Source of the DNA: Escherichia phage T4_ev151
DNA: 64,000 bases
Sequence record: LR597660
Strand: one strand, 5' to 3'
The notes beneath the pieces were generated by a model, which had not been told where the DNA came from, made no database searches, and saw only the letters and a program-made list of their open reading frames with translations. Both the position numbers and the translations under genes were made by a program. Position 1 is the stretch's first letter. Each line of letters begins with the position of its first letter. This document shows, piece after piece, positions 11,055-14,151 of the stretch.

Positions 11055-11081
11055 CAAAATGAAGAAAGGGGCCGAAGCCCC
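11055..11081 (-). terminator. Terminator after hoc on the minus strand
   Basis: GGGGC-TTCG-GCCCC hairpin (11068-11081) followed on the minus strand by a U-rich tract. Confidence 0.6.
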
Positions 11082-11087
11082 TTATGA

Positions 11088-12794
11088 TTATGGATAGGTA
11101 TAGATGATACCAGTTTCTAAAGCAGTTTTATGAATGATGTATCCATTACGCGATTCTTGGACATCAACTTCTGGATAATCTTTCATCATCTTCTGGAGAG
11201 TGTAACGATGCAAGTAGTACTTACTATCTGGATCGTCAGTTTTCCAATCTTTACCTTCTTCGGTCATTTTTTGGATTTCATCCATAACCCACCAACCGCA
11301 CCAGATATAAGCCGAAGTACGATGTGGAAGAGGATGAACATAAGGCAATTCACCTTCTGGTTCTGGAGCAACTTTATCAGTTACCTGAACTTGACCTTCT
11401 GCTGTGATAGTTTTGCTATCATAATCAGTAGCAGTAACAGTTGCAGTAACTTCAATAGTTTGACTTCCAATAGATGATGTATCAACAGTGTATACATTAG
11501 TTGACCCTTCTACTGGAGAAGAATCTTTCTTCCATGAATATTCGATTTGTGCTTCTTCTGGAGCATCCGTAACATTAGCAGTAAATGTAGCCGAAGCATC
11601 TTGCTGAACGTTAATAGAAGGAGGAGTCAATGTAACCCGTGGATTCATTGTTTTCTTATTAACAGTCAATGATACTTCATTAGAAGTAACTTCCTTTTCA
11701 TTGTAATTTTCTGCAGTTACTTGCGCTACACACTTAACTGTTTTAGCTCCAACTGTGGTAGGAGTATAGTTAAATGTAGTAGTAGTTTCTCCATCGACCA
11801 GAGAACCGTCAACATACCACTGATACGTAGCAGACGCTCCTGGTGGCTGTGAAGCCAAGGCAGCAGTAAATTGAACTGGGGTTCCAATTACTGCTGCAGC
11901 AGGATTAGCAGGAGTTACGGCTAACGTAGTTGTCTGTGTTTTCTTATTAACTGTTAATGATACTTCATTAGAAGTAACTGTTTTTGCGTCATAATCTGTT
12001 GCTGTTACTTGGGCTACGCATTTAATTCTTTTAACCCCACTTGTAGTTGGAGTGTAATTGAACGTAGCATTAGTTTCTCCACCAACTTGTGAATCATCTA
12101 CATACCACTGATACGTAGCAGATGCTCCTAGCGGCTGCGAAGCTAAGGCAGCAGTAAATTGAACTGGGGTTCCAATTACTCCTGCTGGAGGACTATCAGG
12201 AGTTACTGCCAAAGTAGTTGTCTGCTCCTTTTTATTAACAGTCAGTGATACTTCATTAGAAGTAACGCTTAGTGCATCATAATCTGTCGCAGTTACTTGA
12301 GCTACACACTTGATTTTTTTAACTCCGCTTGTGTCAGGAGTGTAATTGAATGTAGCGTCAGTTGCTTCGTCTACAGGAGAACCGTCAACGTACCACTGAT
12401 ATGTGGCGTTTGCGCCAGATGGCTGCGAAGCTAAGGCAGCGGTAAATTCAATTGGAGTTCCAATCACTCCAGCATCAGGGCTACCAGGAGTTACAGCTAA
12501 AGTAGTTGTTTGTGTCTTATTTTGAACTGTGATAGTTGTACTAATTTCAGCTGTTTCAGCTTCACTGTCAGGAACTGGATTTGTTGCAACTACTTTAATA
12601 GTTTTCTGGCCTGCAGGCCCCTTTAATACATAACTAAAAGTTGCTGACGTTTCTTCCTGTGGAGCACCGTCTACAGTCCAAGCATATGTAATAGGTCCAT
12701 CTCCAGTTTGACCACTGGGTGTAGCAGTAAACTGCTGAGTCTGATCTATAACTCCAGTAGGTGTTTTAGGAGTTATATCAACTGTAAAAGTCAT
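11088..12794 (-). CDS. hoc: Outer capsid decoration protein Hoc with five tandem Ig-like domains plus C-terminal capsid-binding domain
   Basis: 568 aa; five ~95-aa repeats (three nearly identical, starting TTTLAVTP...) then a C-terminal block ...YIWCGWWVMDEIQKMTEEGKDWKTDDPDSKYY; positioned between 24.x and inh as in T4. Confidence 0.88.
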   Translation of the reverse strand: MTFTVDITPKTPTGVIDQTQQFTATPSGQTGDGPITYAWTVDGAPQEETSATFSYVLKGPAGQKTIKVVATNPVPDSEAETAEISTTITVQNKTQTTTLAVTPGSPDAGVIGTPIEFTAALASQPSGANATYQWYVDGSPVDEATDATFNYTPDTSGVKKIKCVAQVTATDYDALSVTSNEVSLTVNKKEQTTTLAVTPDSPPAGVIGTPVQFTAALASQPLGASATYQWYVDDSQVGGETNATFNYTPTTSGVKRIKCVAQVTATDYDAKTVTSNEVSLTVNKKTQTTTLAVTPANPAAAVIGTPVQFTAALASQPPGASATYQWYVDGSLVDGETTTTFNYTPTTVGAKTVKCVAQVTAENYNEKEVTSNEVSLTVNKKTMNPRVTLTPPSINVQQDASATFTANVTDAPEEAQIEYSWKKDSSPVEGSTNVYTVDTSSIGSQTIEVTATVTATDYDSKTITAEGQVQVTDKVAPEPEGELPYVHPLPHRTSAYIWCGWWVMDEIQKMTEEGKDWKTDDPDSKYYLHRYTLQKMMKDYPEVDVQESRNGYIIHKTALETGIIYTYP

Positions 12795-13533: not shown

Positions 13534-14151
13534 ATGTACCACTTTGTATATGAAACAACAAATCTAATAAACGGTAAAAAGTATATAGGAAAACACTCTA
13601 CTGATGACTTGAATGATGGTTACCTTGGTTCCGGTAAGGCAATTCAGCAGGCTATAAAGAAATATGGTGAAAACAATTTCTCTAGAACAATATTAAAAGA
13701 GTTTAAAACTTCTGAAGAAGCGTACATGTATGAAGAAGAAATTATAACTCCTGAAATAATAAAAAGCAAAAATTATTATAATATGAAACCTGGTGGAATT
13801 GGTGGAATTGTTATGACTACAGAGGTTATAGCAAAGATGAAAGAATCTTCCGCTAAGAGATTTGAAAACTCACCGGGCACGGTATTAGGTACAACTTGTT
13901 ACACCAATGGAACTAAAAATATTTTTATTAAACCTGGAGAACTTGTTCCAGAAGGATTTGTAAAAGGAATGGTTCATCCTAATAGAAAGTCCAGAAAAGG
14001 ATGTAAAGTCAAACCGACTACCACAGGAACTTTTTGGGTCAATAACGGTGCAATAAATAAATTAATACAACCAGACGGTATTATTCCCGACGGATTTATT
14101 AAAGGTCGTCTCATGAAAAGAGATTCTAAAGGCAAATTTAGTAAGGCATAA
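13534..14151 (+). CDS. Free-standing GIY-YIG homing endonuclease (Seg family-like)
   Basis: 205 aa; N-terminal GIY-YIG module (HFVYETTNLINGKKYIGKH ... Y..EEEI ... YYNMKPGG); sits in the inh-uvsW interval, where I recall T4 carrying a seg gene, but I cannot say which one. Confidence 0.8.
   Translation: MYHFVYETTNLINGKKYIGKHSTDDLNDGYLGSGKAIQQAIKKYGENNFSRTILKEFKTSEEAYMYEEEIITPEIIKSKNYYNMKPGGIGGIVMTTEVIAKMKESSAKRFENSPGTVLGTTCYTNGTKNIFIKPGELVPEGFVKGMVHPNRKSRKGCKVKPTTTGTFWVNNGAINKLIQPDGIIPDGFIKGRLMKRDSKGKFSKA

Follow-up and report, generated by a model that had tools for sequence, protein, structure and literature searches.

We analyzed a 64,000-nucleotide stretch of Escherichia phage T4_ev151 (sequence record LR597660), called the window below, for the structure and origin of its hoc gene. 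In T4-like phages, one Hoc monomer sits in the middle of every gp23 hexamer, with 155 monomers per capsid, and the protein is dispensable for growth. Hoc also serves as the T4 display platform for vaccines. The window contains a hoc gene that encodes, from the N terminus to the C terminus, domain 1 (D1), three units of domain 2 (D2) termed A, B and C, domain 3 (D3) and a C-terminal capsid-binding domain. The gene and its parts are as follows.

11088 to 12794, minus strand: hoc coding sequence, 568 amino acids plus the stop codon; a single intact open reading frame matching PHROG 1149 and the T4 Hoc chain
12510 to 12794, minus strand: immunoglobulin-like (Ig-like) domain 1, residues 1 to 95; pairs with T4 Hoc residues 1 to 95; beta strands, with predicted local distance difference test (pLDDT) values of 81 to 92
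12222 to 12509, minus strand: D2 unit A, residues 96 to 191, the first 288-bp repeat; location of the Pfam BiPBP_C and Ig_2 matches
11934 to 12221, minus strand: D2 unit B, residues 192 to 287, the second repeat; the unit nearest to T4 D2 (87.8% DNA identity)
11646 to 11933, minus strand: D2 unit C, residues 288 to 383, the third repeat; contains the best Pfam PKD stretch (residues 292 to 361)
11370 to 11645, minus strand: Ig-like domain 3, residues 384 to 475; pairs with T4 Hoc residues 192 to 283; Pfam Ig_3 and I-set matches at residues 385 to 469
11091 to 11369, minus strand: C-terminal capsid-binding domain, residues 476 to 568; nearly identical to T4 Hoc residues 284 to 376

The gene is an intact hoc with two additional domains

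The 568-amino-acid protein matched PHROG 1149 (Hoc-like head decoration) with an E value of 1e-174, and the T4 Hoc chain 5vf3_Z and other capsid-structure chains (376 amino acids) with an E value of 3e-206. When the protein was aligned with T4 Hoc, T4 residues 1 to 189 paired with window residues 1 to 189, and T4 residues 177 to 376 paired with window residues 369 to 568 with very few substitutions. From these alignment ends, the excess over T4 Hoc is exactly 192 residues, or 2 x 96 residues, which equals two copies of domain 2. The C-terminal domain also matched PHROG 21694 (E value of 1e-41 over residues 504 to 568) and was 98 to 99% identical to that of RB69 (99%), SG1 and the protein cluster P0090.

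The surroundings of the gene pointed to the same identity. The gene order (rnlB, 24.2, 24.3, hoc, inh, a segE-like GIY-YIG gene and uvsW) is that of T4, and the position of hoc between inh and 24.3/24.2/rnlB is common to T4, FriedrichMiescher, ESh36 and RB69. The 24 kb around the gene were 95 to 99% identical to more than 500 Tequatrovirus records, with Escherichia phage FriedrichMiescher as the closest backbone (97.6% identity). The window gene is intact and codes for a complete Hoc in which a T4-identical capsid anchor follows five Ig-like domains. The exact 568-amino-acid protein has already been deposited (VUF55740.1, Escherichia phage T4_ev151). In that public record (167,097 bp), the protein is labeled a hypothetical protein although it is a full-length Hoc, a practical point for annotation.

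Outside the C-terminal domain, two of the compared loci (L004 and L005, the latter being SG1) diverged sharply from the window. While the last 270 to 290 nucleotides of hoc, which encode the C-terminal domain (11091 to 11369), were 94 to 96% identical in DNA, the Ig domains of these genes were just 26 to 60% identical to those of the window, with a sharp mosaic boundary near residue 475.

The additional domains are tandem repeats with a predicted Ig-like fold

Tandem Repeats Finder reported a period of 288 bp in 3.0 copies at positions 11649 to 12515 (80% matches; score of 1064), a repeat length and score that exclude a chance origin. The sequence TTTLAVTP starts each of the three units (residues 96, 192 and 288), and SNEVSLTVNKK occurs within each of them (residues 179, 275 and 371). 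The original prediction, made from the DNA letters, had placed the repeats at 11649 to 12509 and had described a 568-residue Hoc with five Ig-like domains against 376 residues and three domains in T4, the two extra domains being tandem copies of domain 2. The open reading frame and the T4 alignment agreed with the lengths and domain numbers, the alignment and the 192-residue excess agreed with the derivation from domain 2, and Tandem Repeats Finder and the positions of the two motifs agreed with the span and the copy number.

The Ig-like nature that had been assigned to the repeats was supported by domain and structure predictions. Pfam PKD (PF00801) matched in three stretches with 54.9 bits against a cutoff of 23.5 (E value of 9e-15), BiPBP_C matched with 50.3 bits against 26.8, Ig_2 matched with 36.1 bits against 27, and Ig_3 was also above its threshold. 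The AlphaFold2 model, built from a 39-sequence alignment, had a mean pLDDT of 83 and contained five consecutive all-beta modules with pLDDT values of about 85 to 95; the D2 units were the best predicted, and the C-terminal domain alone was poorly predicted. A Foldseek search of the PDB with the whole five-domain model returned multi-Ig strings (CEA, five-domain ICAM-1, E-cadherin EC1-5 and Dscam) at low template modeling scores of 0.14 to 0.25. The low scores come from the arbitrary arrangement of the domains relative to each other, and the support is limited to the fold class. The N-terminal part of the protein is therefore a predicted string of five Ig-like (PKD-type) domains.

The domain-2 units are diverged and under purifying selection

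We then compared the three D2 units with each other. The protein identity was 82% between A and B, 73% between A and C, and 79% between B and C, and the corresponding DNA identities were 78%, 76% and 82%. The longest in-register exact DNA match was 36 bp between B and C, and 21 bp for A and B as well as for A and C. By the Nei-Gojobori method, the synonymous divergence was 1.00 (A and B), 0.70 (A and C) and 0.56 (B and C), while the comparison of the window hoc with T4 hoc gave 0.39 for D1, 0.37 for D3 and 0.21 for the C-terminal domain. The units are thus more diverged among themselves than the window gene is from T4 hoc. The ratio of nonsynonymous to synonymous divergence between the units was 0.12 to 0.27, and each D2 unit is under purifying selection.

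The units were also compared position by position in a set of eight 568-amino-acid Hoc proteins that included the window's own. Identity to window A was 89 to 97% for the first unit, and identity to window B was 89 to 95% for the second; when the window protein itself is set aside, the third unit was nearest to C in five of seven proteins. Different phages had more similar units at a given position than the window gene has among its own units. This position-specific likeness implied that the array is older than the split between these alleles. Among 37 multi-unit Hoc clusters (within P0001 to P0038), no two units of one protein were more than 84% identical, which is consistent with a rapid loss of near-identical tandem repeats in the highly recombinogenic T4-like phages, where diverged units alone would persist.

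The original prediction had called the units nearly identical and their expansion recent. Neither description held. The near-identity by which a recent tandem duplication would be recognized was not what we found, and both the synonymous divergence of the units relative to the T4 flanking domains and the positional likeness in other phages argue for an old array.

Copy number of domain 2 is polymorphic in Tequatrovirus

The five-Ig form of hoc is present in other phages. A hoc gene of 1707 or 1713 bp with 92 to 95% identity to that of the window was contained in 13 GenBank records, which cover 12 phages sequenced by several laboratories, and eight further protein clusters of 567 to 570 amino acids came from ENA, Logan and NCBI. 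Of the 120 best clusters, 73 had a length of 376 amino acids, 29 had 472 and seven had 568. In a sample of 60 records drawn evenly from the 656 matching phage records, two genes spanned 1707 bp, 14 spanned about 1419 bp and 37 spanned about 1131 bp; the other seven records gave partial matches. By this sample, a few percent of the genes are five-Ig, about a quarter are four-Ig and about 60% are three-Ig, as in T4. The window allele belongs to the longest class of a Tequatrovirus polymorphism in D2 copy number (one, two or three units; 376, 472 or 568 amino acids), and the five-Ig allele is old, uncommon and already public.

Variation in the number of Hoc domains has been stated in the literature (PMC10385173; PMC11853027; PMC13435897). 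In most of 650 Hoc homologues, Ig-like domains are strung together in front of a C-terminal domain that is conserved, with a maximum of 10 domains in Serratia phage Muldoon (PMC10385173). We found no paper that describes the series of 376, 472 and 568 amino acids in Tequatrovirus in a search that covered few subscription journals. With the five-Ig architecture already in GenBank and the variation in domain number already in the literature, the allele adds little as a discovery.

Units are mosaics that switch at a short conserved tract

To describe the relation between alleles, 155 D2 units were painted according to their match to the window units at variable sites. The painting showed pervasive A/B/C mosaicism, with pure A-, B- and C-type single units and many hybrids. 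Several of the switches described below fall at one tract.

12004 to 12011 (unit B), 11716 to 11723 (unit C) and 12292 to 12299 (unit A), minus strand: 8-nucleotide identical tract CAAGTAAC, located by alignment and mismatch counts

Unit 2 of FriedrichMiescher had one mismatch to window B against 39 to window C in alignment columns 1 to 211, and one mismatch to window C against 16 to window B in columns 220 to 289, so that the switch from B to C in this hybrid unit was located at the CAAGTAAC tract. The B/C hybrid reads as the signature of an in-register unequal crossover that would alter the number of units by one. Window unit B changes its partner at the same tract, from FriedrichMiescher-like to ESh36-like: its first 211 nucleotides had one mismatch to FriedrichMiescher unit 2 against 30 to ESh36 unit B, and its last 77 nucleotides (columns 212 to 289) had one mismatch to ESh36 unit B. 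Window unit C had three mismatches to ESh36 unit C. On the alignment, judged by eye, T4 D2 likewise turns from B-like to A-like at this tract. The tract encodes part of CVAQVT, which together with the invariant stretch coding for VTSNEVSLT flanks a short patch that varies between the units: A has TDYDALS, B has TDYDAKT and C has ENYNEKE.

The recombinational length variation that had been foreseen for this gene was therefore seen on an evolutionary timescale, in the classes of 1131, 1419 and 1707 bp and in the FriedrichMiescher hybrid. We also considered whether the four-Ig gene of FriedrichMiescher arose from a window-like five-Ig gene. A single deletion would account for the B/C hybrid, but window unit B itself switches partner at the same 8-nucleotide tract, and either allele may have given rise to the other.

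The FriedrichMiescher hoc gene is 1420 bp long (MZ501066.1, locus positions 1501 to 2920) and contains a 1-nucleotide insertion, owing to which it is annotated in two pieces, "Hoc part 1" and "Hoc part 2." The insertion is an extra G in a G run, GTGGGGGTT against GTGGGGTT (L001:2257), 27 nucleotides upstream of the B/C junction. The gene may be a true pseudogene, or the extra G may be a sequencing error in the homopolymer.

Origin of the three-unit array

Our preferred explanation, with a probability of about 85%, is that the window carries an intact five-Ig hoc whose D2 units are old, diverged and constrained, and that this gene represents the longest class of a recombining copy-number polymorphism. 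The two extra domains are paralogues of T4 Hoc domain 2, and the units would be old rather than recently duplicated in this phage. Homologous recombination in register, both among units and among alleles, would reshuffle the polymorphism, with crossovers probably resolving within short conserved stretches of the unit.

Several points weigh against this explanation. The correspondence of the third unit across the five-Ig alleles is imperfect: with the window's own protein counted among the eight, five third units were nearest to C and three to B. The divergence of the units could come partly from the joining of alleles that were already diverged, and not from the age of the array. Both a collapse of a three-unit array and a build-up from shorter alleles fit the data. 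A 5'-to-3' polarity of the mosaics from A to B to C was tried as a sign of collapse. With the window as reference, the ratio of forward to backward hybrids was 56:6 for the three-Ig alleles and 95:25 for all units, but with five other five-Ig references it was 87:51, 52:16, 25:30, 27:10 and 11:26; the signal depended on the reference and was not relied on for the direction of change. Finally, the effects of the allele on fiber length, adherence and immunogenicity are something that we infer.

On the other hand, domain 2 may have been duplicated recently inside this lineage, leaving repeats that are young and unstable. The perfect 288-bp register and the conserved ends TTTLAVTP and SNEVSLTVNKK would fit such an event, but a DNA identity of 76 to 82%, a synonymous divergence of 0.56 to 1.0 and a longest exact shared stretch of 36 bp make it very improbable, as do the closer resemblance of same-position units in other phages than of units within the gene and the same architecture in at least 12 other phages. 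An assembly artifact, in which the repeat number was inflated or mis-joined, is scarcely conceivable. Tandem repeats are prone to mis-assembly, and T4_ev151 is an ENA assembly of unannotated style in which Hoc is called a hypothetical protein. However, the units are distinct at about 20% of their bases, so that reads place uniquely, the frame is intact over 1707 bp with each unit under purifying selection, and independent genomes from different laboratories carry a 1707-bp hoc at 92 to 95% identity, to which the eight further clusters of 567 to 570 amino acids can be added. The repeats had also been flagged as a likely site of assembly collapse; with units that differ at about one base in five, no exact repeat longer than 36 bp and the architecture in at least 12 independently sequenced phages, such a collapse is unlikely.

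The array may also have been joined fairly recently, by unequal recombination between already diverged alleles in co-infected cells. In that case, the units differed from the start, and the age of the array could not be read from their divergence. Three-Ig Hocs with an essentially pure A-type (six clusters), B-type (15 clusters) or C-type (two clusters) D2 exist, and the cluster P0090, an in-register chimera of T4-type D1-D2 with RB69-type D2, D2' and D3, shows that domains can be gained when heterologous alleles are joined. The partner switch of window unit B at the 8-nucleotide tract (FriedrichMiescher-like on one side and ESh36-like on the other), and the lack of a Hoc with near-identical units in the sample of 37 multi-unit clusters, also fit this explanation. 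We nevertheless consider it unlikely. The A-B-C order and the positional likeness are common to most five-Ig alleles, which differ by 5 to 10% overall, and this implies an array older than their divergence. Moreover, two D2-like units are already present in the outgroup RB69.

Beyond the old and recombining array that we prefer, a further proposal can be made, although we hold it only tentatively and regard it as rather doubtful. The D2 copy number may be a frequently switching trait in which the three-unit array is older, and the four-Ig forms and the T4 three-Ig form may be collapsed derivatives produced by unequal crossover at the CVAQVT tract. If this were true, phage populations could tune the fiber length and the valency or variety of glycan pockets on the capsid, each unit pairing its own variable patch (TDYDALS, TDYDAKT or ENYNEKE) with the invariant NEVSLT.

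Possible consequences for the capsid fiber

Since part of domain 2 has been linked to glycan binding in another Hoc, we located the corresponding motif in the window protein.

12240 to 12257, minus strand: NEVSLT copy 1, residues 180 to 185, including S183, L184 and T185
11952 to 11969, minus strand: NEVSLT copy 2, residues 276 to 281, with S, L and T at 279 to 281
11664 to 11681, minus strand: NEVSLT copy 3, residues 372 to 377, with S, L and T at 375 to 377

In domain 2 of PNJ-9 Hoc, S183, L184 and T185 were reported to be needed for MUC2 binding (PMC11853027). These residues have the same numbering in the window Hoc and are repeated at 279 to 281 and 375 to 377. The variable patch before each NEVSLT copy overlaps the pocket segment A165-Y172, which was mutated in the PNJ-9 Hoc study (PMC11853027). 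As each copy follows a distinct patch, three non-identical putative glycan-binding pockets per fiber are possible, and three copies beside different patches could raise or broaden mucin-glycan binding.

T4 Hoc is present as a single copy at the gp23 hexamer center and projects as a fiber (PMC10385173). By analogy with T4, the window Hoc would bind the same place, and its fiber would be about 9 nm longer (two domains of about 4.5 nm each, derived from the 18-nm four-domain T4 fiber). The window Hoc has an isoelectric point of 4.48 and a net charge of -28 at pH 7, compared with 4.74 and -14 for T4 Hoc. Under the electrostatic-dispersion idea for Hoc (PMC10385173), a more acidic Hoc would lead to stronger repulsion between particles. 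The natural alleles with one, two and three units form a ready series in which fiber length and motif valency could be set against mucus adherence, aggregation and antigenicity.

Other features near hoc

An intrinsic-terminator-like hairpin follows the gene.

11056 to 11083, minus strand: hairpin AAGGGGC-TTCG-GCCCCTT followed by a T run, 5 nucleotides past the hoc stop codon

In Yersinia phage fPS-90, a terminator is annotated at the corresponding site. When the minus strand upstream of inh and hoc was searched for the T4 late-promoter motif TATAAATA, no copy was present.

The segE-like GIY-YIG homing endonuclease gene (13534 to 14151, plus strand; Pfam SegE_GIY-YIG, E value of 3e-9) is situated between inh and uvsW, as in T4, at a distance of about 740 bp from the start of hoc. 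Part of the mosaicism of hoc could come from co-conversion that accompanies homing. A 115-amino-acid open reading frame (11130 to 11477, plus strand) runs antisense to the 3' part of hoc; its product would be hydrophobic and of low complexity, and the frame is most likely spurious.

Comparison with known Hoc systems

T4 Hoc (376 amino acids; 5vf3_Z, 8t1x and 8t9r) is encoded by the same gene at the same locus, and both proteins are acidic. T4 Hoc contains one D2 unit, while the window Hoc contains three and is 192 residues longer. The T4 unit is nearest to window unit B, yet it carries an A-type 3' patch.

The closest relatives in architecture are the five-Ig Hocs of ESh36, ESh16, YUEEL01, TOPO13, OMNI12, KMB26, EC101 and UGKSEcP1, with genes of 1707 bp, and of UGKSEcP2, with a gene of 1713 bp. 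These Tequatrovirus proteins have the order D1-A-B-C-D3-C terminus as in the window, with a DNA identity of 92 to 95%. Their units 1 and 2 correspond to those of the window one by one, and unit 3 mostly does. The window allele differs from that of ESh36 as a mosaic, with three mismatches in unit C against 30 in the first 211 nucleotides of unit B. The four-Ig Hocs of FriedrichMiescher, ime09, pSs-1 and fPS-90 (472 amino acids) belong to the same family and locus. They have one unit fewer than the window, with an A-type unit 1 and a unit 2 that is B-type, C-type or a B/C hybrid.

The cluster P0090 (567 amino acids; 24 members from Logan assemblies) represents a second, unrelated route to a five-Ig Hoc, and its T4-type D1 and D2 shared 79% and 84% identity with the window domains.

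In Hoc homologues with other domain numbers, different domains were duplicated or lost, and the Ig domains were 26 to 60% identical to those of the window. RB69 Hoc (471 amino acids, four Ig domains) consists of D1, two D2-like units (55% and 40% identical to those of the window) and a D3-like domain. PNJ-9 Hoc has two Ig domains, Klebsiella phage PMBT63 Hoc has an additional one, and Serratia phage Muldoon Hoc has 10 in 1174 amino acids. In Salmonella phage SG1 Hoc (470 amino acids; NC_054936.1, L005:1377-2789), the D3-type domain, and not domain 2, was tandemly duplicated, its two units being 58% and 55% identical to window D3. Thus, different Hoc domains have been duplicated in different lineages.

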